From contig CAYZRW010000005.1 of NCBI GenBank assembly GCA_964480955.1, positions 26,279-90,278 on the forward strand: 64,000 nucleotides of DNA. The letters are read 5' to 3'. Numbering within the stretch: position 1 is the stretch's first letter; every line of letters starts with the position of its first letter. Position numbers and translations under genes: made by a program. Shown here piece after piece: positions 19,407 through 57,717 of the stretch. Under the pieces are notes generated by a model. The model worked only from the letters and a program-made list of their open reading frames with translations, was not told where the DNA came from and made no database searches. This DNA is from an uncultured Candidatus Bathyarchaeia archaeon (GTDB taxonomy: Archaea; Thermoproteota; Bathyarchaeia; 40CM-2-53-6; RBG-13-38-9).

Positions 19407-19488
19407 CTCCTGCAGTCCATTGAGTGTTGGCTACCTTAAGTACTATACTGCCGAGGCTTGAATTTTCGAGTTGTTACTGTAGGCCTAA

Positions 19489-23174: not shown

Positions 23175-23184
23175 AGAGGGCTTT

Positions 23185-23358: not shown

Positions 23359-23459
23359 TCTGTTCTGGCTCTCAACTTGCAGAATTTTTTTGTGATTCTT
23401 GAATGCGTAGAGGACAATCAGCTTAAAAGACTTTCTTTTCCAGAATTTCGTTGGGTAAC

Positions 23460-24273: not shown

Positions 24274-25131
24274 TTGAATAGCTCCATCGGGATGCTCTAC
24301 GATCAAATAAGGCCCGAGGAGCGTCTCCTAATCGATGCTGCGAAAAGGAAGTCCTTAAGACTTCGACTACACAACTCCGAGGAACTTTACCTCAATGCGC
24401 TCGAAGTTGATCGTAGAGAAACCTTCGAAGACGTAGTCTTACAGAGATGCGTCAGCTACTTTCGGAGCATACACCTCACAGCACTGCTAGAAAGCAGAGG
24501 TGTAAGTGTAATAAACTCGTCAAGGATTGCCTCAATCTGCGGCAACAAACTATTGGCTACCATCGAACTTGCAGGAGCAAGGATTCCAACCCCTTCCACA
24601 ACAGTTGCCTTCAGCGTAGAGTCTGCACTCAAGGCCCTTTCCGAGATAGGATATCCGGCAATCCTCAAGCCAGTCATAGGAAGTTGGGGAAGACTTGTCG
24701 CCCCACTAAAGGACGCAGAATCAGCCAGAGCAATACTGGAAGACCGAGAGAATATGTTTCCGCTCTACCAAGTATACTATATTCAAGAGATGATCCAACG
24801 GCCGCCAAGAGACATACGTTGCTTCCTCATAGGCGACGAAGCTGTTGCGGCAATATATAGGTATGCTCCAAAAGATGAGTGGCGAACGAATACTGCAAGG
24901 GGTGGACGAGTGGAGTCATGCAAAATCACTCCCCAAATGGAGGAGCTTGCCTCGAAGGTTGCAAAAGTCTTCGGTGAAGGGGTGTACGGCGTCGATATGA
25001 TGGAGAGTGAGAGGGGTCTAACTGTACATGAAGTTAATTACACGACAGAATTTCGAAATAGCGTCCCAGTAACAGGCGTAGACATTCCAGGATTGATTCT
25101 GGACTTCGCAGGTAGAAAGGTGAGAAAGTAG
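24274..25131 (+). CDS. lysX: LysX (α-aminoadipate–LysW ligase, RimK family)
   Basis: ATP-grasp protein (YPAILKPVIGSWGR, MESERGLTVHEVN). It is the first enzyme gene of the lysWXYZJK operon. Confidence 0.8.
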   Translation: MNSSIGMLYDQIRPEERLLIDAAKRKSLRLRLHNSEELYLNALEVDRRETFEDVVLQRCVSYFRSIHLTALLESRGVSVINSSRIASICGNKLLATIELAGARIPTPSTTVAFSVESALKALSEIGYPAILKPVIGSWGRLVAPLKDAESARAILEDRENMFPLYQVYYIQEMIQRPPRDIRCFLIGDEAVAAIYRYAPKDEWRTNTARGGRVESCKITPQMEELASKVAKVFGEGVYGVDMMESERGLTVHEVNYTTEFRNSVPVTGVDIPGLILDFAGRKVRK

Positions 25132-25132
25132 C

Positions 25133-26185
25133 TTGAAGGTTTCGATAATAGGTGGGTCAGGATACGCGGGTGGAGAATTGATACGAGAGTTACTTTTCCA
25201 TCCAAAAGTCGAGATTATCACGATCGTTTCTAGGAGCCACGTAGACGACTACGTGTTTCGAATTCATCCAAATCTGCGTGGATATACGCAGTTGAAATTT
25301 TCTCCTTTGAATCTGTCTAACATAACTTCAAATTCAGATCTCGTCTTTACAGCGATTCCACACGGAACATCAGCGGAGTACGTACCGAAACTCTTGGAGG
25401 CTGGTTTGAGAGTCATCGATCTAGGCGCAGACTTCAGACTGAAGGACCCTGCAGACTACCAGAAATGGTATGGGTGGACCCACCCACATCCGGAGCTTCT
25501 CAAAGAGGCTGTCTATGGGCTTCCGGAGCTTCATAGAGAAGAGATTAGAAACGCGAGACTCGTCGCATGCCCCGGATGCATGGCCACAGCAACAATTCTC
25601 GGACTTGCCCCGATCATTAAGGAACACGTCATAGAGCCTGAAAGAATAGTTGTGGATGCCAAGATAGGCTCCTCAGGAGCAGGGAATGTGCCGACCAAGG
25701 CTTCACACCATCCTGAACGCGCTAACGGTGTAAGACCCTACAAGACAGTTGGTCACAGACACATTCCAGAGATGGAGCAGGAGCTTTCACTCCTAACCAA
25801 TACCAAACCAGATATTTCCTTCTCCCCCCACGCCGTCCCGATGATCCGGGGAATCCTAGCAACAATACATACATTCCCAAAGAAACAACTCACGCCCCAA
25901 GACGTCTGGAAGATATACCGTTCAATGTATGGCCAAGAACCTTTCATTAGGCTTGTAAAAGATAGAAAAGGCCTCCACCAGCTACCAGACCCTAAAGTGA
26001 CCATGGGTTCAAACTTCTGTGACATTGGATTTGAACTTGACACTCACATCAACAGGATGGTTATTCTCAGCGCGATAGACAATCTTGTGAAGGGAGCTTC
26101 GGGGCAAGCTGTTCAATGCCTGAACATAATGCTTGGAGTCGATGAGAGAACCGCCATTTCAACCCCAACAGTCTATCCGGCGTGA
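25133..26185 (+). CDS. lysY: LysY/ArgC (LysW-γ-aminoadipyl/glutamyl-phosphate reductase)
   Basis: The N-terminal VSIIGGSGYAGGEL NAD(P)-binding motif and the active-site CPGC are present. Confidence 0.85.
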   Translation: MKVSIIGGSGYAGGELIRELLFHPKVEIITIVSRSHVDDYVFRIHPNLRGYTQLKFSPLNLSNITSNSDLVFTAIPHGTSAEYVPKLLEAGLRVIDLGADFRLKDPADYQKWYGWTHPHPELLKEAVYGLPELHREEIRNARLVACPGCMATATILGLAPIIKEHVIEPERIVVDAKIGSSGAGNVPTKASHHPERANGVRPYKTVGHRHIPEMEQELSLLTNTKPDISFSPHAVPMIRGILATIHTFPKKQLTPQDVWKIYRSMYGQEPFIRLVKDRKGLHQLPDPKVTMGSNFCDIGFELDTHINRMVILSAIDNLVKGASGQAVQCLNIMLGVDERTAISTPTVYPA

Positions 26186-26191
26186 GAACCG

Positions 26192-26998
26192 ATGCTTCTG
26201 GTAGTCAAACTTGGAGGGAGCACGCTTGAGGAAGGCGTCTCAGATGAGTTTGTTCAAGATGTCAAGAAGGTTGCGGCAGACCATAACGTTGTGATCGTGC
26301 ATGGCGGAGGCGCCATAGTGACAGAGATAGCCAAGAGGCTGGGCAAAGAACAGAAGTTCATAGTCTCGCCAGAGGGTTTCAGAAGCAGATACACAGATCG
26401 AGAGACCGTAGAGATCTACACAATGGTCATGGCTGGGAAGACGAACAAAGAGATAGTGTTAGCCCTCCAACGTCAAGGTATAAACGCGGTCGGACTCTCA
26501 GGACTAGACGGGTCTTTAGCTATGGCTGAACGGAAGAAACAACTCGTAATAGTCGATGAAAGAGGAAGGAGAAGAATCATAGAAGGAGGATATACTGGCA
26601 AGATCAGCAAGATCAAAGTGGCTCTGCTCAAACTCCTAGTTGAGAACGGATATGTACTCGTCATTGCTCCAGTTGCCATTGGAACAGAGTACGAGCCCCT
26701 CAACACTGATGGAGACCGCATGGCCGCGAACATCGCAGGTTCACTCAAGGCTGACATGCTCATCCTGTTGACTGACGTTAAGGGAGTCGAGTTGGACGGC
26801 AAACTGGTTTCGAAGATGAATGTCCTAGAAGCAAAAGACGCCCTTCCAAGAATAGGACATGGAATGATAACGAAGATTTATGCTGCCATTGAGGCTATCG
26901 ACATAGGTGTGAAAAAAGTCACGATAGCTCCTGGACTAGAACCGTCGCCAGTCTCACTGTCTATTGAGCAGAAATGTGGCACTGTGATAGAGAGATGA
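26192..26998 (+). CDS. lysZ: LysZ/ArgB (LysW-aminoadipate/glutamate kinase)
   Basis: Amino-acid kinase fold (VVKLGGS, VIVHGGG). Confidence 0.85.
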   Translation: MLLVVKLGGSTLEEGVSDEFVQDVKKVAADHNVVIVHGGGAIVTEIAKRLGKEQKFIVSPEGFRSRYTDRETVEIYTMVMAGKTNKEIVLALQRQGINAVGLSGLDGSLAMAERKKQLVIVDERGRRRIIEGGYTGKISKIKVALLKLLVENGYVLVIAPVAIGTEYEPLNTDGDRMAANIAGSLKADMLILLTDVKGVELDGKLVSKMNVLEAKDALPRIGHGMITKIYAAIEAIDIGVKKVTIAPGLEPSPVSLSIEQKCGTVIER

Positions 26999-28194
26999 AT
27001 GAAAAAGAAATAGTCGAGATCGAGCAGACCCACATGGCAAATGTCTACGCGAAGAAGGGCCTAGTCGTCATAAGAGGTCATGGCGCCAAGCTCTGGGACA
27101 TCAATAATCGCGAATACATAGACTGCATGGGTGCCTACGGCGTCTCAATAGTTGGGCACTGCCATCCAAAAGTCGTCGAGGCAATAAAACAGCAATCTGA
27201 AGTTCTCATATCCTGCCACGGATCATTATACAATGACTCCAGATCAAGACTTCTCGAAAAACTGGTCAAGATAACTCCCAAAGGCCTGGACAAAGCCTTC
27301 CTCACAAACAGCGGCGCCGAGGCAGTAGAATGTGCCATAAAACTGGCAAGAAAGCACTCTGGAAGGAAAGAGGTGATAGCTATGATGGGTGCCTTCCACG
27401 GAAAGACGATGGGCGCCCTCTCAGCCACATGGGACAAGAAATACCGCGAGCCCTTTCTGCCTTTGGTTCCAGGCTTCAAGCACGTACCATACGGGAACGC
27501 GGCCAAGCTCAGGGACGCCATAACCGCTGACACCGCAGCCATCATTCTTGAGCCTATCCAAGGTGAAGGGGGAGTGCGAATCCCCCCTGAAGGATACCTC
27601 AAGGAGGTTAAGGAGATCTGCGACGAGAAAGACATAATCATGATAGCGGATGAAGTCCAGACGGGCTTCGGCCGGACCGGCAAAGTGTTTGCCTGCGAAC
27701 ATTGGGGAACCATACCTGATGTTATCTGTCTCGCGAAGGCTGTAGGCGGAGGTTTACCCCTTGGAATAACAGTGGCGAGGCAGGACATCATGTCCTCCCT
27801 AAGGGTTGGTGAACACACAACAACTTTTGGAGGCAACCCACTAGTCTGTGCAGCAGCCTCAGCCGCTATTGACATACTGATATCAGAGAGACTGCCAGAG
27901 AGGGCAGCTGAACTTGGAGCCTACTTCATGAAGAAGCTAGAGAATCTGAGAACCGAGTACAATATCATACGTGAGGTTAGAGGACTAGGCTTGATGATAG
28001 GAGTCGAATCAAGATTCGACGTCTTCAATATCCTACAGAGGTTGATGGCGAGAGGAGTAATCGCACTAGATGCTGGAAGAAACATAATTCGTTTCCTTCC
28101 ACCGCTGGTCATATCGAAGGAGCAACTTGACACAGTTGCTGAATCCATGGACAAGTGCTTGGCTGAGGAGAGAAATGACCGCTTACGAAGTTGA
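26995..28194 (+). CDS. lysJ: LysJ/ArgD (class III PLP aminotransferase of the acetylornithine-aminotransferase type)
   Basis: GHCHP, LTNSGAEAVE, DEVQTGFGRTG and TTFGGNP motifs are present. Confidence 0.85.
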   Translation: MNEKEIVEIEQTHMANVYAKKGLVVIRGHGAKLWDINNREYIDCMGAYGVSIVGHCHPKVVEAIKQQSEVLISCHGSLYNDSRSRLLEKLVKITPKGLDKAFLTNSGAEAVECAIKLARKHSGRKEVIAMMGAFHGKTMGALSATWDKKYREPFLPLVPGFKHVPYGNAAKLRDAITADTAAIILEPIQGEGGVRIPPEGYLKEVKEICDEKDIIMIADEVQTGFGRTGKVFACEHWGTIPDVICLAKAVGGGLPLGITVARQDIMSSLRVGEHTTTFGGNPLVCAAASAAIDILISERLPERAAELGAYFMKKLENLRTEYNIIREVRGLGLMIGVESRFDVFNILQRLMARGVIALDAGRNIIRFLPPLVISKEQLDTVAESMDKCLAEERNDRLRS

Positions 28195-29281
28195 ACTGCT
28201 GACTGAGATGCTCAGGCGATACAGCCCCAGCGGAGGAGAAGCGGCCCTCGCAGAATACGTCCGAGATGAACTGGAAAAGAACAATTTCGATGTACACGTT
28301 GACGATGCTGGAAACGTAATCGGTACGTATGGAAGCGAACAGCCAACCGTGCTCCTGTGTGGGCACATGGATACGGTGCCAGGAGAGTTGGAAGTCAGGC
28401 TTGAAGGAGACCTGCTCTATGGAAGAGGTGCTGTGGACGCGAAGGCCCCACTTGCAAGCATGATTGTGGGTGCTTCAAGGATTACTAAACCAAGAGGCAA
28501 GATTGTTCTTGCATGCTTGGTTGACGAGGAAGGTTGTGGAAAGGGGGTTAGGCAACTGATCAAGGATAAAGTCCAAGCGAACTATGCGATATTTGGAGAA
28601 CCGAGCAGGTCTTGGAATGTCACGATTGGTTACAAAGGAAGTCTGCATCTATGGTTGGAATGCACAACTTCTACGGGCCACTCTTCTTCACCTTGGCTCT
28701 TCAACAATGCCATCGAGAAGGCCTACGAGTTCTGGGAGGCAATAAGAGGACATCGCTTCGAAGAAGAGAAGACAGAGAGCCGCTTCTACTCAGTGACTTC
28801 CTGCCTGACTATGATGAAGGGAGGAGACTCTTCGAGCATGGTACCGTCACGATGCGAGGCGGAGATAGACATACGTACTCCCCCGCAACTCTCGCCTGAG
28901 GTAGTCTTTGGAGGACTCAAGAAACTCGCCGAGGAATTCGGCAGAGCCAATCCGGAGTTGAAAATCAAGCTGGACACTACCAGCATGGTTCCAGCCTACG
29001 AGGCTGGCTCCAGATCCCTCCTCGTCAAGGCTCTAACATACGCCATAAGAAAGGTTTGTCGGCAGACCCCAACCCTCCTGAGAAAGACAGGGACAGGGGA
29101 CATGAATGAACTCGGCTCAATATTGAGAGTACCGATGGTGTCCTATGGACCTGGAGACTCCCACCTTGACCACACGACGAATGAATGCGTCTCGGTATCG
29201 GAGTACCTGTCAAGTATCAGGGTCTACCAGGAAGCCATTCCCAGACTCTTCGACCTTCATCATTCTAACAGGTTAGGGTGA
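28175..29281 (+). CDS. lysK: LysK/ArgE (LysW-lysine/ornithine hydrolase, M20 peptidase family)
   Basis: M20 metal-binding motifs (LLCGHMDTVP, GAVDAKAP, DEEGCGKG) are present. Confidence 0.8.
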   Translation: MTAYEVELLTEMLRRYSPSGGEAALAEYVRDELEKNNFDVHVDDAGNVIGTYGSEQPTVLLCGHMDTVPGELEVRLEGDLLYGRGAVDAKAPLASMIVGASRITKPRGKIVLACLVDEEGCGKGVRQLIKDKVQANYAIFGEPSRSWNVTIGYKGSLHLWLECTTSTGHSSSPWLFNNAIEKAYEFWEAIRGHRFEEEKTESRFYSVTSCLTMMKGGDSSSMVPSRCEAEIDIRTPPQLSPEVVFGGLKKLAEEFGRANPELKIKLDTTSMVPAYEAGSRSLLVKALTYAIRKVCRQTPTLLRKTGTGDMNELGSILRVPMVSYGPGDSHLDHTTNECVSVSEYLSSIRVYQEAIPRLFDLHHSNRLG

Positions 29282-30681
29282 TCAGATTGAGTTATAGAAG
29301 AATAAACCACGATGTCCTCATCTTGGACACAACTTTGAGGGAGGGAGAACAGACTCCAGGAGTCACATTCACAATAGAAGAGAAGCTTGAGATAGCTCGG
29401 AAACTGGACGATATAGGGGTAGACATGATCGAGGCTGGAGACCCCAATGTCTCAAGCGATGTTAAGGAGGCTATTAGAAGAATCGCGAAGGAGGGTCTGA
29501 AAGCTGAGATACTTGCCCATTGCAGGGCCCTGGTCCCTGATGTTGAGACCGCAGCCTCATGTGGGGTAGACAGAGTCGCCATATTCCTCGGGACTTCAAA
29601 GTCCCATCTCAAATACAAAATGAAGAGGGATGAAGAGAAGGCTATAGAACTTGCTTCAAAAGCAATAGAACACGCCAGAGACCAAGGTTTGAAGGTCAGA
29701 TTCACAGCTGAAGACGCGTCAAGGACCGACTACGATTTTCTTTTGAAAATATGTAAAGAAGCACAAGACTCCGGCGCTGACAGGATAAGCATACCGGACA
29801 CAGTTGGAATAATGACTCCCAACAGTGTTCGGGAACTGTTTGGAAAACTTACTCAAGAACTTAAGGTTGAACTTGACACACACTGCCACAACGACCTAGG
29901 TATGTCAACGGCCAACACATTGGCAGGACTTGAGGGAGGAGCCACAGCAGCCCACGCCACCATTAACGGTTTAGGTGAGAGGAGTGGAATAGCCCCACTC
30001 AGCGAAGTCGCAGTTGCTCTGAAAGTGATATATGAAATTGAGACCGTGAGGCTTGAAGAACTCCCAGCACTATCCCTCTTAGTTGAGAGATACAGCGGAA
30101 TAGTCCCGGCGCCGAACACACCCATAATCGGGGAAAACGCCTTCACTCACAAGGCAGGTATTCATGTTGCAGGCGTTCTGGCCAACCCATCAACCTACGA
30201 AGGCTTCCCGCCAGATCTGATTGGGAGACAAAGGGACATAATCATAGACAAGTACACGGGAATTCACGCGGTCAAATCTAGACTCGAAAGGCTTGGTGTC
30301 ATCCTAAACGAGAGTCAAATAACTAGCGTGGTCCAAGCGATAAAAGAGAGGCCTACCGTCACCAGGTTCAGAGACGCCGACCTCATAGAGTTGGCCGAAC
30401 AGGTAACGGGGAAGAACCTCCAAGCTGAGGTTCCAAGCAAGGTTGAAGCCCTCCTAAGAGTCAAATGCGAATCGAACGTCTATACAACAGCAATAGCCAG
30501 AAGACTCAGAGCTCTAAAGAAAATCAGTAAGGTCTATGAGGTCACCGGAAACTATGACATTCAAGTCTCGATAACTGCAGACTCAACAGCAGACCTCAAC
30601 GACATCCTCGAGAGAATAAGGGAGATGGATGGTGTCAAAGAGACCGAGACTCAACTCATCCTGAAGAAGTTTGAAACCTAA
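29278..30681 (+). CDS. Homocitrate synthase-like 2-oxoacid:acetyl-CoA condensing enzyme with a C-terminal RAM-like regulatory domain
   Basis: DRE-TIM core (LDTTLREGEQTPGV, HCHNDLGM, NGLGERSGIA). About 80 C-terminal residues (YEVTGNYDIQVSI...ILERIREMDGVKETETQLI) look like an Lrp RAM domain. It lies downstream of lysK. Confidence 0.75.
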   Translation: MIRLSYRRINHDVLILDTTLREGEQTPGVTFTIEEKLEIARKLDDIGVDMIEAGDPNVSSDVKEAIRRIAKEGLKAEILAHCRALVPDVETAASCGVDRVAIFLGTSKSHLKYKMKRDEEKAIELASKAIEHARDQGLKVRFTAEDASRTDYDFLLKICKEAQDSGADRISIPDTVGIMTPNSVRELFGKLTQELKVELDTHCHNDLGMSTANTLAGLEGGATAAHATINGLGERSGIAPLSEVAVALKVIYEIETVRLEELPALSLLVERYSGIVPAPNTPIIGENAFTHKAGIHVAGVLANPSTYEGFPPDLIGRQRDIIIDKYTGIHAVKSRLERLGVILNESQITSVVQAIKERPTVTRFRDADLIELAEQVTGKNLQAEVPSKVEALLRVKCESNVYTTAIARRLRALKKISKVYEVTGNYDIQVSITADSTADLNDILERIREMDGVKETETQLILKKFET

Positions 30682-41664: not shown

Positions 41665-42381
41665 CTATCGTTTAGAGATTTTCTCCCTATGCCTTCTATC
41701 AAGTTCTCTGAATACTTCTCCAAGTTTTGCTTTCTTGGATGCAAGGAGGATCATAAGATGAAAGATCAGGTCTGTCGTTTCGGATACGAGGCTGTCTGGC
41801 TTATCCTTGGCTGCCAGTATGACCTCTGTAGACTCTTCACTGATCTTCCCTAGAATTGCGCTCTCCCCTTCATCTACCAGGTTCCTGACGTAGGATCTCT
41901 TGTCTCCAGTCTTTATACGATCAAGTATTATCTCATAGACCTTGTTGAGTATTGACGCATCCGGGTAGGTTTCCTCCTCCGGGACGATAGGGTTGTGAAA
42001 GCAGCTTTCCTTGTCTGTGTGGCAGCAGGGGCCTATCTGTTGGACTTTGACCAAGACTGCATCGTTATCGCAGTCCAAGCTCACGTTCTGAACGATAGAG
42101 AAGTGTCCTGACTCCTCACCCTTCATCCAGAGCCTCTTTCTGGTGCGGCTCCAGAAGTGGGTCTTGCCTGTGACAAGGGTTAGGATGAGCGCCTCCCTAT
42201 TCATATATGCCTGCATCAGAACCTTGTTGCTTGACGCGTCCTGCACTATCGCTGGGATCAAACCGTCTTCTTTCTCGAAGTTCACCGTGTTAGCCAGCTG
42301 CTCCGCCTCATCCCTGCTCATCTGCAAGACCACTAACCCCTCGTCCTCCCCATTGGTCTTAGAGTCTGACTGGTACTCCAC
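41665..42381 (-). CDS. hisI: Bifunctional phosphoribosyl-AMP cyclohydrolase / phosphoribosyl-ATP pyrophosphatase
   Basis: 238 aa: an N-terminal HisI domain ([27 protein letters not shown]...C...H) and a C-terminal HisE domain ([12 protein letters not shown]). Confidence 0.85.
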
Positions 42382-43159
42382 GCTCTGAAAGGTACTCCTT
42401 AACCTTCAAGACAGGGAATATGTCTCTGTGGAAGATAGATGCTGCCAGTGCAGCGTCGGCGGCTCCCTCAACCAAGACCTGTCTAATATGCTCTGGTTCA
42501 CCGGCGCCCCCGCTTGCTATGATGGGTATGTTTACAGTCTCAGAGACTTTCCGTGTGAGAGGTATGTCGTAACCAGACTGTGTCCCATCATAGTCCATGC
42601 TTGTGAGAAGGATTTCGCCAGCCCCTAACTGCTCTACGCGTTCCGCCCATTCAACTGCATCCATGCCGGCGGCCGTTCTTCCCCCCTCTACGTAGACTTC
42701 CCACCAGCAAGCGCCTTCGGGAGTTTCCACGACTGTCTTACCCTCAGTTTTTTCATAGACCCTCTTTGCGTCTATCGCCACGACGATGCACTGCGAACCG
42801 AAGGCCTGAGCTGATTCTTCAATTAGGGTCGGATCCTTGACGGCGCCTGTATTTATGGAGACCTTGTCAGCCCCTGAACCAAGGATCTCCCTGATACTGT
42901 CTAGTGAACGTATCCCGCCCCCCACTGTGAAGGGTATGAACAATGTCTCAGCGGTCCTCGTAACGACGTTTAGCAGTATCTTTCTTCTCTCGAAGGACGC
43001 TGTAATATCTAGGAAGACAACTTCATCGGCCCCTTCCATTCCGTAAGTCTCAGCCAGTCTGGCTGGGTCGCCTTCCTCTCTCAGGTTCTTGAATCGGACC
43101 CCTTTGACTACCTTACCTTCTTTGACATCGAGGCAAGGAATTATTCTCTTAACAAGCAT
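42359..43159 (-). CDS. hisF: Imidazole glycerol phosphate synthase, cyclase subunit
   Basis: [18 protein letters not shown] and ASGGAG motifs are present. Confidence 0.9.
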
Positions 43160-43871
43160 TTCTAGCAGCCTCCAGAGCCTCTTTCAGACTGAACCTGTTC
43201 TCGTATAGGGCTGTGCCGACGATGACTCCCTGGACGCCTATCTTGGCTAGGGCCCGTATGTCCTCTAGGCTCCTTATTCCGCCTGACGCTATGACTGGGA
43301 TGCTTAACGAGCGGACAAGCCTCTTTGTGTCGCTGAGCGCTGGGCCGCTCAGGGTCCCGTCAGCGTTTACGGATGTGAATACTATTGTTCCGACGCCTAC
43401 AGCTTCCAGTCTCTTTGCGACCTCAACATACTCTAGGGATGTTTTGCTCCTCCAACCCTCTATCGTTGGGCTGCCGTTCTTGACGTCTATTGCTGCGGCG
43501 ACTCTGTCTTTACCGCAGGCTGTTACAACTTCAGAGATGAGTTCGGGTTTTCTGACGCACGCGGTTCCAAAGATCACCCTTGCCACTCCAAGACTCAGAA
43601 TCTCCTTGGCTTTCTCCAGTGTTCTTATTCCGCCTCCGACCTGAGTCCCTATGCAGACTGACCTCATGATCCTGCTTATGGTCTTGGTGTTGTCTCCAAG
43701 ACCCAATGCAGCATCCAGGTCAATTATGTGGAGAATCTCAGCGCCCTGAGATTGAAAGAATCTCGCGGCGTCTTCCGGGTTTTCGTAGTACTGTTTTGAT
43801 TTGGAAGGGTCTCCCTGAAAGAGGCGGACGCACCTTCCACGCATCAGGTCAATAGCCGGTATTACTATCAT
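43149..43871 (-). CDS. hisA: ProFAR isomerase
   Basis: IPAIDL, GGGIR and ASGGI motifs are present. Confidence 0.9.
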
Positions 43872-43879
43872 ACGCTACT

Positions 43880-44488
43880 CTACTTCTCTGCTATCTTGAC
43901 GAAATTCCGCAGTATTGTCAAACCTCTCTCTCCACTCTTTTCAGGGTGGAATTGGGTTGCGAATATGTCTCCCCGCTCAAGAATTGATGGAAACTTCACA
44001 CCATATTCTGTTCTGGCAACTATATCATCTAGGCTCTCTGGTTTTGCATAGTATGAGTGGACGAAGTACATGTAGGAATTGTCTGGGACTCCCTCAATAA
44101 TGGGGCTGGCTCTTGAGAATTCAACGTTGTTCCATCCGATTTGGGGGAGTTTTACATTCCTCGGCAGCTTCACAACCTCTCCCTTCAGAAGGTTGAGTCC
44201 CTCCGTGACGCTTCCCTCATAACTCCTAGTGAACATGAGTTGGAGTCCCAAGCATATTCCAAGTAATGGTTTCCCATTCTCTGCTTCTTGAACTATTGAC
44301 TCTGCAAGGTGAGTGAGGTTCCTCTTTGCTACTGCGAAGGCGCCGACCCCTGGGAGAACTATGGCGTCAGAATCCCTCAAGTTGACTAGTCCACTCGTTA
44401 TCCGTACCGTTGCACCTGCTTTCTCAAGTCCCTTCTTTACACTGTGCAGATTTCCAACACCGTAATTCATGATGGTTATCGCGGGCAC
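43880..44488 (-). CDS. hisH: Imidazole glycerol phosphate synthase, glutaminase subunit
   Basis: Class I glutamine amidotransferase (GICLGLQ, FHPE). Confidence 0.9.
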   Translation of the reverse strand: MPAITIMNYGVGNLHSVKKGLEKAGATVRITSGLVNLRDSDAIVLPGVGAFAVAKRNLTHLAESIVQEAENGKPLLGICLGLQLMFTRSYEGSVTEGLNLLKGEVVKLPRNVKLPQIGWNNVEFSRASPIIEGVPDNSYMYFVHSYYAKPESLDDIVARTEYGVKFPSILERGDIFATQFHPEKSGERGLTILRNFVKIAEK

Positions 44489-45073: not shown

Positions 45074-46267
45074 TTACGTTCCGACTATATCAAAGACTGT
45101 AGGTAATGAATTTGTATCCTTAACTATTACTTCAGCTCCCAGCTCCATAAATTTGCTCTTCAAGCCCTCCTCTTCAGCCGATGAAGATAACGTGCCGATG
45201 AAGATCAGGCTTCGAGCCTCGAGTTTCCTAGCGTTCTTCACCATCAAGGCGTCTGCAACTGTATCTCCTATGTAGGCGAGGCTCATCTGTTCTCCACAGA
45301 CTTTCTTGAATAGATGTACAAAAGCTCTTGCGTCCGGCTTCCCCCAGCCTGAACCAGAACGCTCCGTAAAGTGGGTTCCCTTAATGTCTTCGTTGAAGAA
45401 CGTTGCTTTCCTGTCGAAGTAGCTGAGAAGGTTGTGTCTTTGCAGGATGTAGAACCCTTCCTTTCTAGGCCTCTCAGAATACAGTGCAAAAGGGCCAAAA
45501 CTTGCCTTCAGTCTATCCAGCGTCTGCATGGTCGGAATCTTCTCCTCCCTATCTATCAGCCCTTCTGCAAAACGAAAGAAGGATTTCTTCCCGCTGAACC
45601 TTTCATATAGGGTGCTTCCCAAGTAGATTTCGTCGAAGAGCCTTCTCAGTAGATCGTCTCCCTCAGTATCGAACGGACAGAACGTCTCCATAGCCTCAAG
45701 CTCTGCCCTCCCGAGTTTTAAGGTTCGACCGACAGGCTTCAGAATTGGGATGTTTGCCTTCTCACTGAATTCCTCAACTAGGCTGTTGAAGCCGACTAGC
45801 CGATCTGTCTTCATTCTCTCTAGGTATGCCGTGTCGATCCCCAGTTGGCCAGCTCTTGCTCCCAAGTCTTTCAGCCTTTCCAGAATGTCCTTGAGAGGTT
45901 CTCCTTTGAGTTCAGCAATTCTTCCGAGCTGGACCTCGCCCTGTAGTCTTCGTATCATCAAGCCCAGATAGTAGGTTATCAACGCGTATGTGAGATTCCA
46001 ATCGTTGTTGAACGCTCCTGTATCTTTGATCTTCTGGATGTCTTCCTGAGTCACCAGACATCGCTCTTCTCCCTTGAGTCCGACAATTCTCAGGAAATAG
46101 TAGTCGACTGAGCGAGCTATGGCCTGCCTGTAGGAGTCCCTGTCTGAAACTATCACTCCATCACAGTCGAAGATTAGCTTCTTAACCGTCGAGATTAGTG
46201 AATCCGCATCGGCCCTGCATAGGATCTCTTCGCCCCCTAAGTTGCGGTATGAGTATCTGCTTGTCAA
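45074..46267 (-). CDS. HAD-superfamily hydrolase with a large cap domain, embedded in the his operon (candidate histidinol-phosphate phosphatase)
   Basis: 397 aa. HAD motif I is DCDGVIV at about residue 34. Motif IV-like IGDTVADA lies near the C-terminus. A roughly 250-aa region sits between them. The gene is located between hisB and hisC. Confidence 0.55.
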   Translation of the reverse strand: MTSRYSYRNLGGEEILCRADADSLISTVKKLIFDCDGVIVSDRDSYRQAIARSVDYYFLRIVGLKGEERCLVTQEDIQKIKDTGAFNNDWNLTYALITYYLGLMIRRLQGEVQLGRIAELKGEPLKDILERLKDLGARAGQLGIDTAYLERMKTDRLVGFNSLVEEFSEKANIPILKPVGRTLKLGRAELEAMETFCPFDTEGDDLLRRLFDEIYLGSTLYERFSGKKSFFRFAEGLIDREEKIPTMQTLDRLKASFGPFALYSERPRKEGFYILQRHNLLSYFDRKATFFNEDIKGTHFTERSGSGWGKPDARAFVHLFKKVCGEQMSLAYIGDTVADALMVKNARKLEARSLIFIGTLSSSAEEEGLKSKFMELGAEVIVKDTNSLPTVFDIVGT

Positions 46268-47355
46268 TCTAGGATGCGCCCTAACTCCTCTAGAAACCTC
46301 TTGTTTGAAGGCCTCGTCCCTACAGTCACCCTTAGACAGTTCTGTAGCAGTGGGACTTTTCCTCTATCTTTGATGAGGATTCCTTTTCCCCTTAGCTCGG
46401 ACTGAATTCTGGACGACGATTTTTCGTGGTCGACTTTGAAAAGAATGAAGTTTGCATCTGATGGATAGGGTGTGACTCCCCTAATCTGTCTAAGCTGACT
46501 TAGCAACCATTCTCTCTCTTTCTTAACATCTTCGAAGATCTTCTTGAAGTAGTCATATCGCTGGAGGACCTCTACTACTGCCTGTTGGGCAAGAGAACTC
46601 ACGTTGAAGGGATGGACAGTCTTCTTCATCGCTTCGACCAGCTCTTGGTCAGCTATGAGGTATCCAGTCCTTATCCCGGCAAGACCGAATGCTTTGGAAA
46701 AAGATCTGAGGACAACAAGATTCCTATACTTGCTCGTCCACTCTAGGATTGAGTACTTTCCAAACTCCACATATGTCTCATCAATAGCCACGACTGAGTG
46801 ACACCTGTCCAGCAGATCTTCCAAGTCACTCTTCTCGAATTGGTTTCCTGTAGGGTTGTTGGGTGAACATATGAAAACGAGTTGGGAGTCACGTGAAGCA
46901 TCTATCAACGAATCTGTGTCTAGGCTGAAGTCTGGTTTTAACATGACTTCGACTTTCTGTCCTTGACACAACTGTGTGTAGTACGTATACATGAAGAATG
47001 TTGGTTCGGCCACGACAACTTTCGATCCTTTGTCCACAAGGACCCTAACCAGCCTATCCAGAACATCGTCGATACCATTTCCCAGAAAGAGTCGTGAGGG
47101 TTCCATATCGTGAAACCTCGCAATCGCCTGAACTGCGGGTCCTCCGTGAGGTCTTGGGTACTCCCTAGGGTCAATCTTCCTCAGTGCGGCTTCCAATATC
47201 TTGGTCAGCTCAACCTTCTCAACTAGGGGGTTCTCGTTCAGGCTCATTCTGACAAGATTCGTCAAGTTATCCGTTGGGAAATCATCGTCGAGTCTGTAGG
47301 GAGATATCTCCAGAAACTCCTTGCGTATGACCTTTCTGAACGCCATTCTAGACAC
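46264..47355 (-). CDS. hisC: Histidinol-phosphate aminotransferase
   Basis: Class II PLP aminotransferase, 363 aa (LNENP, SFSKAFGLAGIR). Confidence 0.85.
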   Translation of the reverse strand: MSRMAFRKVIRKEFLEISPYRLDDDFPTDNLTNLVRMSLNENPLVEKVELTKILEAALRKIDPREYPRPHGGPAVQAIARFHDMEPSRLFLGNGIDDVLDRLVRVLVDKGSKVVVAEPTFFMYTYYTQLCQGQKVEVMLKPDFSLDTDSLIDASRDSQLVFICSPNNPTGNQFEKSDLEDLLDRCHSVVAIDETYVEFGKYSILEWTSKYRNLVVLRSFSKAFGLAGIRTGYLIADQELVEAMKKTVHPFNVSSLAQQAVVEVLQRYDYFKKIFEDVKKEREWLLSQLRQIRGVTPYPSDANFILFKVDHEKSSSRIQSELRGKGILIKDRGKVPLLQNCLRVTVGTRPSNKRFLEELGRILD

Positions 47356-48637
47356 CTCTGACAGTTATCGATCTTGAGTGTGCCGGTAGATTCTCAATCT
47401 CGGCGAGAGTCACCGTTGTTTTGGCCAGTCTCTTTAACCCTTTTCTTGAGCAGCGAACGTAACTGATGGTCTTTAGGAAATCCCTGACTGAGAGCCCTGA
47501 GTAGGTTCTGGCGTATCCACCTGTCGGCAAGACGTGGTTCGTTCCGGCGGAGTAATCACCGAGGGCGACTGGGGAATATTGCCCGATGAATATGAGGCCT
47601 GCATTCCTTATCTCTCTGAGTAGTGACTGAGGGTTCTTTGTCATTATCATTAAGTGTTCTGGTGCGATCTGGTTTGTTAACATCACGGCTTCCTTTAGGT
47701 CCCCAACTACTACTATTAAGCCTCTATTTTCCAAGGCGGCTTTGGCAGTCTCAGGTCTTGGCATAGTCTTGAGCATCTCTGCTATTGCTTCTCTGACCTC
47801 ATTCGCTATACTCTCTGAATCAGTTAGCAGAATACAGCTTGCATTTTCATCATGTTCAGCTTGTGCCAGCAGATCTGCTGCGATGAATTCAGCTTCAGCA
47901 TTCACGTCGGCTATGACGAGTATCTCGCTCGGTCCAGCTGGAAGATCGACTGAAACGTATCTGCTCAGAAGCTGCTTGGCTGAAGCCACGTATATGTTTC
48001 CCGGCCCAACAATTTTTTCAACACGTCCTATCGTCTTGGTGCCGTAGGCCATCGCCGCAATGGCTTGTGCGCCGCCGACACAGAAGATTTCATCCACACC
48101 TGCGATGTCTGACGCTACTAGAACGTATGGGTTAAACCTACCTTTTGGAGATGGGGGGCTGCATACTAGGATTCGGTCAACCCCAGCGACCTTGGCGGGT
48201 ATGGCGCACATCAGAACTGAGGAGGGATAGGAGGTTCTTCCTCCAGGGGCATAGATACCGACCGTGCTGATGGGTCTAGTGACTACCCCTAACGCTACGC
48301 CTCCACCAGCCTGCTCAAACCGAATTCGTTTGAGTTGCATTCTGTGAAATCTCTTGATATTTGACGCCGCTGTCCTAAGCGCCTTAACCTCGGCTGGCCG
48401 GACGAAATCGTAAGCTGCCTCAATATCATCTTGTGTTGCCTTCATGGTTCTGGGGTCCAACTTTATCCTGTCGAACTTTTGAGTCAATTCAATCAAAGCT
48501 TCGTCGCCGCGTATCCTAACCGCTTCTATCACTCCTTTGACATCATTCTCAACGTTTTCAAGCTCCAGTCGACCCCTATTCAGAATCTCCTCTAGGAGTT
48601 CGCCTTTCAAACCGTCAGATCTAGTCAGACGTATCAA
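47348..48637 (-). CDS. hisD: Histidinol dehydrogenase
   Basis: 429 aa with HisD signatures (GGAQAIAAMAYGT, QAEHD). Confidence 0.9.
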   Translation of the reverse strand: MIRLTRSDGLKGELLEEILNRGRLELENVENDVKGVIEAVRIRGDEALIELTQKFDRIKLDPRTMKATQDDIEAAYDFVRPAEVKALRTAASNIKRFHRMQLKRIRFEQAGGGVALGVVTRPISTVGIYAPGGRTSYPSSVLMCAIPAKVAGVDRILVCSPPSPKGRFNPYVLVASDIAGVDEIFCVGGAQAIAAMAYGTKTIGRVEKIVGPGNIYVASAKQLLSRYVSVDLPAGPSEILVIADVNAEAEFIAADLLAQAEHDENASCILLTDSESIANEVREAIAEMLKTMPRPETAKAALENRGLIVVVGDLKEAVMLTNQIAPEHLMIMTKNPQSLLREIRNAGLIFIGQYSPVALGDYSAGTNHVLPTGGYARTYSGLSVRDFLKTISYVRCSRKGLKRLAKTTVTLAEIENLPAHSRSITVRGV

Positions 48638-53377: not shown

Positions 53378-54478
53378 ATGTTGCGTGTACTATTTCTCCG
53401 CCCACAACCCGCGATCAGGAGCCTCAAATATGCCTTAGCCTTCAAGGATGTAAAAGCCGAGGTCGAACTGTATCACGGGTACACAGCCAAGACGATCTCG
53501 GGGCTGTATGGCTATGGAGATGAATGCTTCAGGAAGTCTGTGCGACTGGACTCGAGAAGGCTTGGAGAAGAACTGAAGCGGTTGATCAAGGATTTCTCGA
53601 TCGAGCTGATTCACAGTCAGAACGCTCCAGACACTCTTACAAGGATCGCGGTGGAAGCTACGGATGAAGTTCCAATCATTCATGAGAACCAGGATACTAT
53701 CTCTCTGCGCCAAACACCGTATACGCCAGAAACCAATTTTGAGGAACAGCTGGTCGATGAGAGAATTGCAAACCAGATGTGCGATGCCAGAATCCACGTA
53801 AGTCAAGGTATGTTGGACTACATACGGAGCAGGTACGGCGCAAAGAGAGAGATCGTGTTCCACAACTACGTTTCCAGATCTCTGATGCCACATTCTTTCA
53901 AGAGAAAGCTGTCGGAGAGTAACGGAAATGTCCATCTAGTGTACGAGGGAACATTGTCAAGCCTTCTTGGAGATCACTACGATCTTAAGGATATCTTCAA
54001 GGATCTTGCACGCCATGGCTATCACATTCACATCTACGATTCACACAGCAATCAAGACTACGCTAGATTAGCCGAGATCTATGATTTAATCCACTATCAC
54101 GGGCACAAGGACCCGAGGGAACTTCCCTATGAGATAACCCAATACGACTACGGTTGGGCTGGCTTCAATGTTACAAAGAACAGAGAACACATGGACGTGG
54201 CGTTACCCAACAAACTGTTTGAGTACCTGGCTTCAGGGCTTCCAGTGCTTTCATTTCCACACAAAGCACAGAAAGAATTCATTGAAGCGAACGAAGTAGG
54301 CCTCGTGTCAAAAGACCTTAACGAACTTGATGATAACATCAAGCAGCAAGCCAAGATAGAGCAGCTTAAGTGCAATGTATTGCAGAAAAGATTCGAATTC
54401 ACGATGGAGGCCAACATTGGGAGAGTTCTCAATCTCTACGCTGATCTACTTGAGCTTGGAAAAACTTGCCACAGATGA
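53378..54478 (+). CDS. Glycosyltransferase (GT-B fold, group 1/GT4-like), paralogue B
   Basis: 366 aa (VLFLRPQPAIRSLKYALAFK..., LPNKLFEYLASGLPVLSF). It is clearly paralogous to 52023..53174 and divergently transcribed from it. Confidence 0.65.
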   Translation: MLRVLFLRPQPAIRSLKYALAFKDVKAEVELYHGYTAKTISGLYGYGDECFRKSVRLDSRRLGEELKRLIKDFSIELIHSQNAPDTLTRIAVEATDEVPIIHENQDTISLRQTPYTPETNFEEQLVDERIANQMCDARIHVSQGMLDYIRSRYGAKREIVFHNYVSRSLMPHSFKRKLSESNGNVHLVYEGTLSSLLGDHYDLKDIFKDLARHGYHIHIYDSHSNQDYARLAEIYDLIHYHGHKDPRELPYEITQYDYGWAGFNVTKNREHMDVALPNKLFEYLASGLPVLSFPHKAQKEFIEANEVGLVSKDLNELDDNIKQQAKIEQLKCNVLQKRFEFTMEANIGRVLNLYADLLELGKTCHR

Positions 54479-54871
54479 GATTCACTTCAACCCTTTGGTA
54501 CCCAAGAAAAGCGATGTACGACGAATAGTTGCGAAGCATCTTGTTGTAGCTTTGGTCGTCTATGGTGGACTACGCACCGAGGATAGCGGGCGCATTTATG
54601 AGCAATGTAGTGCAGTATAGGCATAGGTCTTTGTATGATCGTGAACGAATGGTATGCGTACACGTTATTCATGCTCAGCTACGGCTTCGGCAGGCATAAC
54701 TCCACCATCCCTACTCTTCAAAGAGAACGGTGTATCAGTGACGACTACCGTAGATGTAACCGTTGGCAGCACTTTCACCATGAGTTTGACGAGACACTCT
54801 TCTACTTCTGACAATTCCAACATCCAGACCCGGGGGTGGCCAAATCCCAACTTGATTATTGATCAGATAAG

Positions 54872-55072
54872 TCAAGAAGCCAAGACTTCTATGCAATGCT
54901 TGGCGTATCTAATGGCATCTTGAGCTTCATCGCTATTGAACAGCATGGCTGAGATAAGGATATCGTGAAGGAACTGATTCCTAATCTCCTTAACCTTACG
55001 CATCATTTTGTAAGTTTCGTCATCAATCAACTCGAGCTCTCTTAACATGTCTTGCAATCTGGAGGCAGGCAA
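54872..55072 (-). CDS. Small HEPN-like protein (Rx4H motif; possible toxin remnant)
   Basis: About 66 aa from a TTG start. It contains EIRNQFLHD, an R-x4-H motif as in HEPN/HepT nucleases. No partner MNT ORF was found. Confidence 0.3.
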   Translation of the reverse strand: MPASRLQDMLRELELIDDETYKMMRKVKEIRNQFLHDILISAMLFNSDEAQDAIRYAKHCIEVLAS

Positions 55073-55319
55073 GTCATAGATCCGCTTGAGCTAACATTCT
55101 CTTATCGGAGACGCTGGTGAACGTCTTGTAAGCTTTCCGCAGTGAATACAAAATTTCGTATTAAGCCAAGGGAAAAGCTCTCTTACACACCTGGAGCATA
55201 AAGGCATGGTGGAAACCTAGCATATTCAGTTAAACTATTTGTTTGAAATAGGTCTTTCGAGATCGTGACTACGCTATGAAGCAGCTGCGCGAGGAATAGG
55301 AGATAGAAGGGTGGAAGAC

Positions 55320-55757
55320 TTAGCTGAGTTGTTCCAGTTGACTTAGATCCTGAGTCCACTGATACTGATATCTCTTACTCCATTTTTCATATATTGACTT
55401 CCAATGATCCTTCAAATCCTGGAATGTGCAGTTGTTGACCTTGCAAAAGTGTGTGGTTATGGGCTTTAGGTTGATCTTCCCTTCAGCCGCCAGGGTCTGG
55501 ATGAGGCCGAAGTGCTTTATGGAGTGGCATGCTGTGCAGAGAAGCTGGAACCCTACAAGCCGCTGAACATGCCTCTCATCATTATACTCCCAAATCTCAT
55601 GAAGATGGACAAGCCCTTCCTGTCCGCAGACCTCACATCTCTCACCTTTCTCCTGGATCCTTCGAACTCTCAGCCTCTCCCACTCATCTCTTGGCAACAT
55701 CTTCGCTAAAGACTTCCCCCACAGAGGTTTAGGAACCAGTTCGATCTCCAGCTTCAA
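55320..55757 (-). CDS. HNH-like zinc-finger protein
   Basis: 145 aa. CEVCG...VHLHEIWEYND...CTACHSIKH resembles an HNH nuclease ββα-metal motif (CxxC...H-H...N...CxxCH..H). Confidence 0.4.
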   Translation of the reverse strand: MKLEIELVPKPLWGKSLAKMLPRDEWERLRVRRIQEKGERCEVCGQEGLVHLHEIWEYNDERHVQRLVGFQLLCTACHSIKHFGLIQTLAAEGKINLKPITTHFCKVNNCTFQDLKDHWKSIYEKWSKRYQYQWTQDLSQLEQLS

Positions 55758-56177
55758 TAAACTACACCCGTGAGGCTTCGGAGAGGCTTCGGAGACCTTA
55801 AAGGTTGACGCTAAAAATCCAGTTCCAGATCGCGGAGTCAGAGCAGCAGATTTGGTTGACGAGAAAACGCGTTACGACGTTAAGAAGTATGTTGAGTTGC
55901 TGCAAAAACACTCAGGCCTCCTCTAATTGTGTGCCACAATAGTCACAGATAGAAGCGGATTCATCTTGAGTTATTCGGCCACATCTTGGACAGTATAACA
56001 ATCTTCTGGAAATCATCATGATCATCTATCGACATGAAATCCTTAAGTTATTACATTCGTTGAGAGAGTTAGGGAACTATTACTAGAAAATACCTAGTGA
56101 ACAAAGAAGGTACCTTCAAAAGCGTTTAAGTATAGATGACATACACCTTCCATCAAAACTTCATTGGAGGAGATGCA

Positions 56178-56462
56178 ATGTCAAAGGAACCGAATACAGT
56201 ATTCATAGGGCGAAAGCCGATCATGAACTACGTATTGGCTGTGATAATCCTCTTCGGCAGGGGAGAGACAAAAGAAGTCACCCTTAAGGCTAGAGGGCAA
56301 GCCATAACAACCGCTGTAGATGTTGCAGAGATAACTAGGCGGAGATTTATGAAGAACCTGAAAGTCGATCGGGTAAACCTCGGGACAGAAGACATACCAA
56401 TGCAAGAAGGTGGGACGAGGTCAGTCTCGACGATCGAGATAACCCTCTCAAAATCCCTTTGA
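56178..56462 (+). CDS. albA: DNA/RNA-binding protein Alba
   Basis: MSKEPNTVFIGRKPIMNYVLAVIILF...EVTLKARGQAITTAVDVAEITRRRF...RSVSTIEITLSK is a typical Alba sequence. Confidence 0.85.
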   Translation: MSKEPNTVFIGRKPIMNYVLAVIILFGRGETKEVTLKARGQAITTAVDVAEITRRRFMKNLKVDRVNLGTEDIPMQEGGTRSVSTIEITLSKSL

Positions 56463-56601
56463 AAAGCCTCTTCTAAGGTCTCGAGAATCTGAGCGCGCGC
56501 GCTATCCACCATTCTTCATGCTTCCAATGCTTCAAGGCGTTATCATCCTCCATTTACCAGTTTTCGCAGAAGCTCTTGGAATGTTAGCGCATATTATTCG
56601 A

Positions 56602-57717
56602 CTAGCTTTCCTCTTTGAGTTTACGTTCAAGCCCTTCAAGTCTTCTGGTGGCTTCCTCAAACTTCTGCGCTAATTGTTTGATCTGTTCGTCACGTCTCTT
56701 CATCTCTTCGCTTAGAGAGCTCCTCTCTGTGCCAGAAACGATGTTGAGGTATTTCTCGGCGATTCGATACTGTTCTAGGACGTACTCCTTGTCCATATGG
56801 AACTTATCATAATGGTTTGGATCCGTGACGTGTCCCATCCAGAACTCGACAGCCTGAAGGTCAAGCCCATCCTTCTTTCTCTGCAGGTGTAGTAGAGTTC
56901 TAGCTACGTCGCAGAACTCGTGGGGGTTGTAGCCGTATCTATTGGCTGACTGCCCACCCATCTTGATGTATTTAAGCTTCTGGAGGAGCCTCTGATGTCT
57001 ATAGAAGGCTGCGCGTTTGGCTATGGCTTTGCAGTTGCGGTCGGGCAGGATCGCCTCTCCATCTTTAGGGTAGCCCCGGACCCTCTCAAAATATTCGCGC
57101 CAAGCAACCAAAGCGTCTCGACCGATAAACGTATAGAATCTGGTCTTGTTCTTGGATTGTTTGCGTCCATGATACTCAATCATGAAGGGTTCATCGACAC
57201 CTTTGGTCTTCAGGTGTTCTGTGGGGGCAACCCCACATTTACGGTTGAAGAGACTGAACCTTTCAAGGTCAAGAATCCCCATGAACAAGGTCAAGTAGAA
57301 AGGCTTCATGCTGAAGTCTGAGACAGAGACTAGGCTCTTGATAACCTTGAGGGAGAGCCTGCCCTGAGTAGGCTCCCTAGTCGGCTTAAGATTGAAGTCA
57401 TCCTCAGGCAAAGCAGCACGATTACGCCTGAAGAAGCTCCTAACCGCATCCCACCTAGACATCAACCCACGATAAGTCCCACCGCAACTTTGAATATGCT
57501 CCTCCAGCAAATCCAACAAAACATACTTCCTCCCCTCCCGTTCAGCCCTAAGCTGAAACTCAATCAACCCACTCGGAGTAATCCCCTCAAACCCCGGCTT
57601 AGAATGCAGAAAATCCAGAAAGTACTTCAACGCATACTTTTTAAAATGGGTAGACTCATAAGCCGATAACCACTTCACAACAGCCGGATCCCCTGCCATG
57701 TCAACCGTCACGATCAT
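56602..57717 (-). CDS. Tyrosine recombinase/integrase-family protein with a C-terminal coiled-coil extension
   Basis: 371 aa. It has an N-terminal SAM-like core-binding region and a C-terminal catalytic-domain signature (FWMGHVTDPNHYDKFH, cf. the LGHxxxxxTxxYxH box). The last 50 or so residues are charged and heptad-like. Confidence 0.6.
   Translation of the reverse strand: MIVTVDMAGDPAVVKWLSAYESTHFKKYALKYFLDFLHSKPGFEGITPSGLIEFQLRAEREGRKYVLLDLLEEHIQSCGGTYRGLMSRWDAVRSFFRRNRAALPEDDFNLKPTREPTQGRLSLKVIKSLVSVSDFSMKPFYLTLFMGILDLERFSLFNRKCGVAPTEHLKTKGVDEPFMIEYHGRKQSKNKTRFYTFIGRDALVAWREYFERVRGYPKDGEAILPDRNCKAIAKRAAFYRHQRLLQKLKYIKMGGQSANRYGYNPHEFCDVARTLLHLQRKKDGLDLQAVEFWMGHVTDPNHYDKFHMDKEYVLEQYRIAEKYLNIVSGTERSSLSEEMKRRDEQIKQLAQKFEEATRRLEGLERKLKEES

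Follow-up and report, generated by a model that had tools for sequence, protein, structure and literature searches.

A predicted histidinol-phosphate phosphatase of the archaeal HisN type, in an arginine variant, encoded in a bathyarchaeal histidine operon

Gene content of the histidine operon

The 64-kb window (the whole stretch of DNA that was analyzed) contains a tightly packed histidine operon on the minus strand, hisD-hisC-X-hisB-hisH-hisA-hisF-hisIE, in which X is a gene for a 397-aa protein of the HAD superfamily (Table 1). An earlier note, made from the sequence alone, had placed this gene between hisC and a hisB restricted to the IGPD domain, and Pfam and NCBIfam searches bore out both the gene order and the identities of the neighbors; hisB is monofunctional, comprising the IGPD domain alone without a phosphatase domain. 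Genes in the hisH-hisA-hisF-hisIE block (41665..44488) either overlap or lie 1–8 nt apart. The TTG start codon of X shares the letters TTGA with the stop codon of hisC, and the two genes are translationally coupled through this 4-nt overlap, while the TAA stop codon of X is followed by hisB after a gap of 5 nt. The N-terminus MTSRYSYRNLG is kept in homologues, which indicates that the TTG start was called correctly. HisC produces histidinol phosphate, the proposed substrate of X, and HisD consumes histidinol, its proposed product. A scan of the operon for bacterial sigma-70 promoters and terminators gave counts at background level; the model used is bacterial and the host is an archaeon.

Table 1. 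Features of the histidine operon and of the HAD protein X, in positions of the window.
Feature	Position	Strand	Evidence
hisD, histidinol dehydrogenase	47348..48637	-	PF00815 559 bits; TIGR00069 536 bits
hisC, histidinol-phosphate aminotransferase	46264..47355	-	TIGR01141 315.6 bits, cutoff 276.55 (equivalog)
X, predicted histidinol-phosphate phosphatase, archaeal HisN type, Arg variant	45074..46267	-	ORF; PF00702; hhalign
X: N-terminal extension, residues 1–30, predicted beta-hairpin	46178..46267	-	Model strands 7–9 and 16–18
X: HAD motif I, D34-C-D36-G-V, predicted nucleophile and general acid/base	46154..46168	-	D34, D36 and G37 invariant
X: all-helical C1 cap, residues ~40–258	45494..46150	-	Model secondary structure
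X: cap fingerprint segment S45-Y46-R47-Q-A-I50, equivalent to nmHisN Y24, D25, I28	46118..46135	-	Alignments
X: cap fingerprint segment I77...K81-D-T-G-A-F-N-N-D89-W90, equivalent to nmHisN I52, K56, E64	45998..46039	-	
X: lineage-variable cap expansion, residues ~100–205	45653..45970	-	hhalign gaps against the short group
X: HAD motif II region, F-A-L-Y-S264-E-R266-P	45467..45490	-	R266 invariant; S264 aligned with S/T of others
X: HAD motif III, K310-P311	45335..45340	-	Invariant
X: HAD motif IV, G334-D335-T-V-A-D339	45251..45268	-	G334, D335 and D339 invariant
hisB, imidazoleglycerol-phosphate dehydratase, 192 aa	44490..45068	-	NF002111 234.9 bits, cutoff 231
hisH	43880..44488	-	Pfam and NCBIfam matches
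hisA	43149..43871	-	Pfam and NCBIfam matches
hisF	42359..43159	-	Pfam and NCBIfam matches
hisIE, PRA-CH plus PRA-PH	41665..42381	-	Pfam and NCBIfam matches

We screened the window for other candidates for the histidinol-phosphate phosphatase (HolPase) step and for HisG. Pfam searches of the 40 further ORFs of at least 150 aa in the 64-kb window detected no PHP protein, no IMPase, no HisG and no second HAD protein, and tblastn of the window with four HisG proteins gave nothing below E = 0.19. At this scope, the absence of hisG, of a PHP-type HisK and of an IMPase-type HisN was as the earlier note had claimed. Apart from archaeal housekeeping genes, the 40 further ORFs comprise Lys/Arg, Ile/Val/Leu and isoprenoid genes.

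Motifs, fold and family of the HAD protein

X passes the Pfam HAD model PF00702 (31.2 bits against a GA of 26.4). Motifs DCDGV (residues 34–38) and GDTVAD (334–339) were found as previously quoted, and S264 of motif II and K310 of motif III can be added to them. Statements on the invariance of residues, here and in Table 1, refer to an alignment of 35 homologues; the cap residues S45, G84 and N87-N88-D89-W90 are likewise invariant, and K81 shows a conservation of at least 90%. The AlphaFold model computed from this 35-sequence alignment is confident (pLDDT 88.8, pTM 0.87). It has a Rossmann core with one all-helical cap (residues ~46–257) and no second cap, and a short beta-hairpin at the N-terminus; the Rossmann strands start again at residue 260. 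The cap, with ~210 residues between motifs I and II, is large for HAD-IA proteins generally and usual for TACK and Asgard members of 375–415 aa. Its description as unusually large hence stands in comparison with typical HAD-IA enzymes, but the size is a family trait rather than particular to X, as 353 family clusters at E ≤ 1e-30 have a large cap.

The biochemical reference for this family is Nmar_1556 (nmHisN) of Nitrosopumilus maritimus, a specific HolPase encoded between hisC and hisB (Kinateder et al., 2024, Protein Sci 33:e4899; PMC10804674). The enzyme hydrolyzes histidinol phosphate with a kcat of 0.79 s-1 and a KM of 73 uM, is inactive on nine other phospho-compounds, and is related to the HolPase toHisN of Thermococcus onnurineus (PMC10804674), described by Lee et al. 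(2008) as cited there. According to the same paper, which followed up that remark, Fondi et al. (2009) had earlier drawn attention to an uncharacterized hydrolase encoded in Thaumarchaeota between hisC and hisB. Alanine scanning yielded the cap fingerprint Y24-D25-K/R56-D/E64, to which I28 and I52 are accessory, and D25A lowered the kcat/KM of nmHisN ~220-fold (PMC10804674).

Homologues of X at 35–62% identity occur in Bathyarchaeia, and remoter full-length relatives (24–32%) in Jord-, Frey- and Odinarchaeia, Thaumarchaeota/Nitrososphaeria, Chloroflexota, Desulfobacterales and Halobacteria. The thaumarchaeal positional orthologues, which occupy the hisC-to-hisB slot, align with X over its full length at 26–29% identity. 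Short nmHisN-type members (~300–330 aa) were found by an exhaustive profile search of representative sequences and were recognized by fingerprint, spacing and hisC adjacency; the link from X to nmHisN runs through these proteins. In hhalign, the X-clade profile aligned with a profile of this short group over 315 columns, beginning at motif I and running to the C-terminus (probability 100%, E 3e-73). One of its members, P0400, has the residues I18-Y22-D23-V26-I50-K54-E62, which fall on the published positions I20-Y24-D25-I28-I52-K56-E64 with a uniform shift of -2, and its gene directly follows hisC with a 4-nt overlap. No named Nitrosopumilus protein was among the listed homology-search matches, no protein among the first 259 retrieved had the literal Y24/K56/E64 numbering, and a looser screen of 402 proteins (Y24 with D/N25) returned only P0034, a chance match. 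The additions to X relative to the short nmHisN-type and fused forms comprise ~45–100 residues inside positions 100–205 and the 30-residue N-terminal extension. The cap expansion segment is missing in short members of 228–303 aa, and the N-terminal extension is common to thaumarchaeal, Odin and Jord members and missing in short nmHisN-type and haloarchaeal members.

The family profile matched Tt82 (PDB 6IAH) at E 8e-26, N-terminal segment of the cap included, and 1QYI at E 1.5e-28, cap included, whereas in ordinary HAD-IA enzymes it matched the C-terminal core only. The profile searches and structure prediction that the earlier note had put forward as a check, here run with hhalign, AlphaFold and Foldseek, place X with the archaeal nmHisN/toHisN HolPases, with which it shares HAD motifs I–IV, the single helical cap, profile homology and placement in a his cluster. 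It departs from the strict nmHisN/toHisN fingerprint at D25, and its top NCBIfam match, TIGR01548, scores 82.0 bits, below the cutoff of 140.2. Judged by sequence, X is a homologue of the characterized nmHisN/toHisN HolPase family, in an Arg variant. Other identities were considered and rejected: a phosphoserine or phosphoglycolate phosphatase, as there was no equivalog match and the cap signature differs; a HisB-N type enzyme, as neither TIGR01656 nor TIGR01261 matched at E ≤ 0.01; and a PHP or IMPase type enzyme, as X is a HAD protein by Pfam.

Genomic context, fingerprint states and proposed function

If X acts in histidine biosynthesis, its orthologues might be expected beside his genes elsewhere, as the earlier note had suggested, and such co-localization was seen across Bathyarchaeia, Asgard archaea, Thaumarchaeota and Chloroflexota. 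The gene immediately precedes hisB in each of the five other Bathyarchaeia loci, in two Thaumarchaeota loci, and in a Jordarchaeales locus with the same gene order as the window; an Odinarchaeia locus reads hisG-D-C-X-B-H-A-purP-F-I and that of a Chloroflexota bacterium hisG-D-C-X-B. Altogether, placement in a his cluster beside hisC and hisB was observed in 11 of 14 distinct related loci, and additionally in L019 and L020. Two homologues, P0061 and P0255, are HisC::HAD fusions, with N-terminal halves scoring 340 and 317 bits against the hisC cutoff of 276.55; the P0061 locus is hisD-[hisC::X]-hisB-hisG-hisH-hisA-hisF-hisIE-hisS, with the fusion gene in exactly the place that is taken in other loci by individual hisC and X genes. 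Since HisC yields histidinol phosphate and HisD takes histidinol, both the fusions and the gene position point to the intervening step. Four family members (P0050, P0052, P0056 and the haloarchaeal P0253) lie outside his clusters, so family membership alone is no proof of function; in these cases the his genes may be dispersed, or the proteins may be paralogues that serve a different role.

The cap fingerprint of X, Y46-R47-I50-I77-K81-D89, matches the nmHisN set at five of six positions and with the expected spacings (Y to I +4, I to K +4, K to D +8); the exception is R47 at the position of D25. In a sequence network, Thaumarchaeota and Bathyarchaeota formed one cluster, and a conserved Arg in place of D25 was reported for euryarchaeal cluster II and small delta-proteobacterial clusters (PMC10804674). 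For cluster II, the conserved Arg was considered to call HolPase function into question, and the Arg-type proteins were graded from sequence as "likely" HolPases on a "less reliable" basis (PMC10804674). Both enzymes assayed to date are Asp-type, namely nmHisN with Y-D-K-E and toHisN with Y-D-R-D (PMC10804674). Relative to these, the Arg type is a charge reversal at the residue that docking puts against the imidazole ring.

Across 245 family sequences, a sample biased by query choice, the most common states were Y-R-K-D (146), Y-N-R-D (29), Y-D-R-D (21) and F-R-K-D (18), and positions 47 and 81 co-varied: R47 was accompanied by K81 in 99% of cases and D or N47 by R81 in 88%. The Y-R-K-D state was found in Bathyarchaeia, Chloroflexota and Halobacteria, Y-[D/N]-R-D in Thaumarchaeota and Odinarchaeia, and Phe at the Tyr position in Jord- and Freyarchaeia. 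The same operon slot is filled by both fingerprint states, and the HAD halves of the two HisC fusions bear Y-R-K-D, as does X. The Arg and Asp types may be read as two compensated states of a single specificity site, and both the operon context and the HisC fusions speak in favor of HolPase function in Arg-type proteins.

Taken together, X is very probably the HolPase (EC 3.1.3.15) of this operon, of the archaeal HisN (nmHisN/toHisN) type. This reading, which agrees with the functional proposal of the earlier note, draws on placement across phyla, HisC fusions, intact motifs and profile homology to nmHisN and toHisN, together with a window that holds no alternative HolPase and a hisB that carries no phosphatase domain. 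Counting against it are R47 at the D25 position, a link to nmHisN that runs via proteins recognized by their fingerprint, spacing and position, the family members outside his clusters, and the subthreshold TIGR01548 score. We infer the substrate and the roles of single residues as follows. X would be a Mg2+-dependent HAD phosphatase acting on the L-histidinol phosphate supplied by HisC, with D34 attacking the phosphate to give an aspartyl-phosphate intermediate and D36 serving as the general acid/base. The phosphate and Mg2+ site would be completed by S264, K310, D335 and D339. The large helical cap would close over this site, with Y46, R47, I50, I77, K81 and D89 as the putative specificity residues, and the histidinol released would pass to HisD.

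The substitution at position 47 also invites the reading that X is a HAD phosphatase for some other substrate, such as phosphoserine, phosphoglycolate or a sugar phosphate, with the Asp-to-Arg change marking altered specificity and the operon position being historical or regulatory. R47 does stand for an Asp that matters in nmHisN, some Arg-type members lie outside his clusters (P0052 is beside a transketolase gene, and the haloarchaeal P0253 is a further case), and several homologues are labeled "phosphoglycolate phosphatase-like" by JGI. Yet the Arg-type proteins are precisely those fused to HisC, they occupy the slot from hisC/hisD to hisB in both Bathyarchaeia and Chloroflexota, and the remaining five specificity positions are conserved; moreover, the pairing of R47 with K81 and of D/N47 with R81 looks like a compensated alternative rather than the loss of a site, and the operon would be left without a HolPase step. 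We consider this reading improbable. Decay of X into a catalytically dead gene lingering in the operon can be put aside almost entirely: its unusual TTG start codon is the one feature in favor, set against four intact HAD motifs that are invariant across the clade, a confident structure model, and orthologues at 50–62% identity over the full length, which indicate purifying selection.

A different kind of alternative keeps the HolPase activity and adds a role for the cap and N-terminal hairpin, either in regulation or in docking HisC and/or HisD for metabolite handover. The natural HisC::X fusions, the translational coupling of hisC and X through their overlap, and the conservation of the ~100 added cap residues and the 30-residue N-terminal extension in TACK, Asgard and Chloroflexota forms would fit such a role, although shorter forms also follow hisC. 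However, nmHisN is a monodisperse monomer that is fully active alone (PMC10804674), the fused forms have short caps (HAD half ~190–250 aa), and cap size varies widely in the family while the context is unchanged; an added role of this sort seems very improbable. It is unlikely that the Arg type represents a second, mechanistically distinct way of recognizing histidinol phosphate and that the expanded cap and N-terminal hairpin couple the TACK, Asgard and Chloroflexota forms to HisC. The occurrence of HisC::X fusions in nature is a hint at cap-mediated coupling to HisC, and a bolder version of the distinct-recognition idea would give Arg-type enzymes a different substrate altogether.

Relation to known histidinol-phosphate phosphatases

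The family to which X belongs is already known, having been characterized biochemically in 2024 (PMC10804674); the assignment of X is correct but does not amount to a discovery. Likewise, the proposal of a distinct HAD-type HolPase family was right in separating X from E. coli HisB-N, but that family is not new. The new element here is modest and consists of the comparative evidence for Arg-type homologues as HolPases together with the R47/K81 covariation, which bears on the question arising from the 2024 study (PMC10804674) of whether homologues with Arg at D25 are HolPases. With the gene in this window, the archaeal HisN family also gains a further member from Bathyarchaeia. The HolPase is the histidine-pathway step that is hardest to annotate, and it is still missing in 20% of prototrophic genomes (GapMind 2026). 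Pipelines that call both fingerprint states would close the hisN gap in Bathyarchaeia, several Asgard lineages, Chloroflexota and probably Halobacteria. The value of the result is for annotation, and no concept is altered.

The best Foldseek match of X in the PDB was 1QYI, the S. aureus protein Q8NW41 (E 6e-13, TM 0.62–0.64 over the full length). It resembles X in its length (~380 aa) and expanded helical cap, and differs in having F-Q-K-D instead of F-N-N-D-W; as 1QYI has no known function or his linkage, it says nothing about the substrate of X. E. coli HisB-N (DDDD/HAD-IIIA) catalyzes the same reaction by HAD chemistry, but unlike X it forms part of a fusion with IGPD and has minimal loop caps with a Zn site. 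Independent recruitment of HisB-N and the archaeal HAD HolPases has been argued (PMC10804674). The paHisN protein (PA0335) of Pseudomonas aeruginosa and related PSP-like enzymes are further HAD HolPases that fill the same gap and are commonly mis-annotated (Wang, 2020; Price, 2018; Kinateder, 2024); their four-helix SerB-like cap and D16-D18-Y47 fingerprint differ from those of X, which they match only in the HAD core. The HolPases treated by Price et al. (2018) and in GapMind 2026 are all of other types.

Within the archaeal group, TIGR01548, a HAD family classed as a "hypothetical equivalog" (HAD-SF-IA-hyp1), is the counterpart of euryarchaeal cluster II in the published network (PMC10804674) and the top NCBIfam match for X and for all his-linked homologues tested. 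Its haloarchaeal members (218–234 bits, ~290–300 aa) bear Y-R-K-D like X, and one that was examined lies outside a his cluster. Tt82 of Thermococcus thioreducens (6IAH) was the second-best Foldseek match of X in the PDB (E 1.6e-7, TM 0.73 on the target) and is probably orthologous to toHisN, judging from its fingerprint and lineage. Searches of the literature on TIGR01548 and on the Tt82 structure yielded nothing useful. The Thermococcales enzymes are smaller (~240 aa, with a seven-helix cap) and have Y-D-R-D where X has Y-R-K-D, but toHisN and Tt82 are like X in having Asp at the position of E64.

A close parallel to X is nmHisN itself, which likewise combines a HAD core, a single big helical cap after motif I and a gene between hisC and hisB. 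X shows ~22% identity to nmHisN-type proteins and is ~70–90 residues longer owing to its N-terminal hairpin and expanded cap, with ten or more cap helices compared to nine in nmHisN. Both carry the cap signature S-Y-x-x-A-I ... K-x-x-G-x-F-N-[ND]-[DE]. Among the fingerprint positions, the Tyr, both Ile and the Lys are the same in the two proteins, whereas X has Asp at the position of E64, like toHisN, and R47 at that of D25.

Conservation of the fingerprint and genomic setting in the HAD family

The published fingerprint of histidinol-phosphate phosphatases (HolPases), Y24-D25-K/R56-D/E64 in the assayed nmHisN of Nitrosopumilus maritimus, includes a tyrosine termed 'strictly conserved', and the Y24A substitution in nmHisN lowered efficiency ~300-fold (PMC10804674). 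Among the retrieved homologues of the predicted 397-aa HolPase, five his-linked proteins from Jord-/Freyarchaeia (P0037, P0123, P0149, P0188, and P0190) contain phenylalanine in place of this tyrosine, and some of them contain isoleucine or methionine at the position of nmHisN D25, equivalent to R47 in the window's protein. Since these Asgard members are his-linked and carry phenylalanine, the fingerprint may not hold when extended to the whole HAD family.

Three full-length members of the family are encoded outside his clusters. The gene for P0050 (Nitrososphaeria; locus L006) adjoins NDK and NUDIX genes, that for P0052 (locus L009) lies downstream of transketolase, and that for P0056 (locus L013) lies downstream of aldehyde and alcohol dehydrogenases. 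These proteins could represent paralogues that act on different substrates; alternatively, they could be HolPases in genomes where the his genes are dispersed.

Other features of the window

Features in the window outside the his operon
Feature	Position	Strand	Remarks
aIF5B (IF-2 family) gene	17581-19490	minus	apparent frameshift inside the P-loop, near 19320-19345
argininosuccinate synthase	20981-22198		upstream of the LysW/LysX-type cluster
LysW/LysX-type amino-acid biosynthesis cluster	22314-29281
homocitrate/isopropylmalate-synthase-like protein	29278-30681	plus	HMGL-like and HCS_D2; C-terminal Lrp/AsnC ligand-binding (RAM) domain
stretch without any ORF of at least 150 aa (~2.1 kb)	54478-56602

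The LysW/LysX-type cluster contains two divergently arranged RimK/LysX ATP-grasp genes, followed by genes for a semialdehyde dehydrogenase, an amino-acid kinase, a class-III aminotransferase, and an M20 deacylase. Its neighbor, the synthase-like protein, carries a RAM domain, which suggests built-in amino-acid-sensing regulation of the first enzyme of this adjoining LysW-type Lys/Arg cluster.

The P-loop of aIF5B appears split over two frames, with '...IVVVLGH' in one and 'VDHGKTTLLDQIRG...' in the other, and an in-frame stop separates the two parts. Most probably an error introduced during sequencing or assembly caused this break, or alternatively the gene is a pseudogene; whichever the cause, the break warns of indel errors in the contig. 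No tRNA genes were detected across all 64 kb (1-64000), and no Rfam families reached threshold over the same range.

HisI and HisE in related his clusters

In the Odinarchaeia cluster (L012), hisA is separated from hisF by an inserted purP-like gene (DUF1246/DUF1297). This cluster and those of Thaumarchaeota (L015-L018) encode a stand-alone HisI (PRA-CH only, ~110-134 aa) that lacks the HisE domain, in agreement with the second most common gap in GapMind 2026. In contrast, the his operon of the window encodes a fused HisIE.
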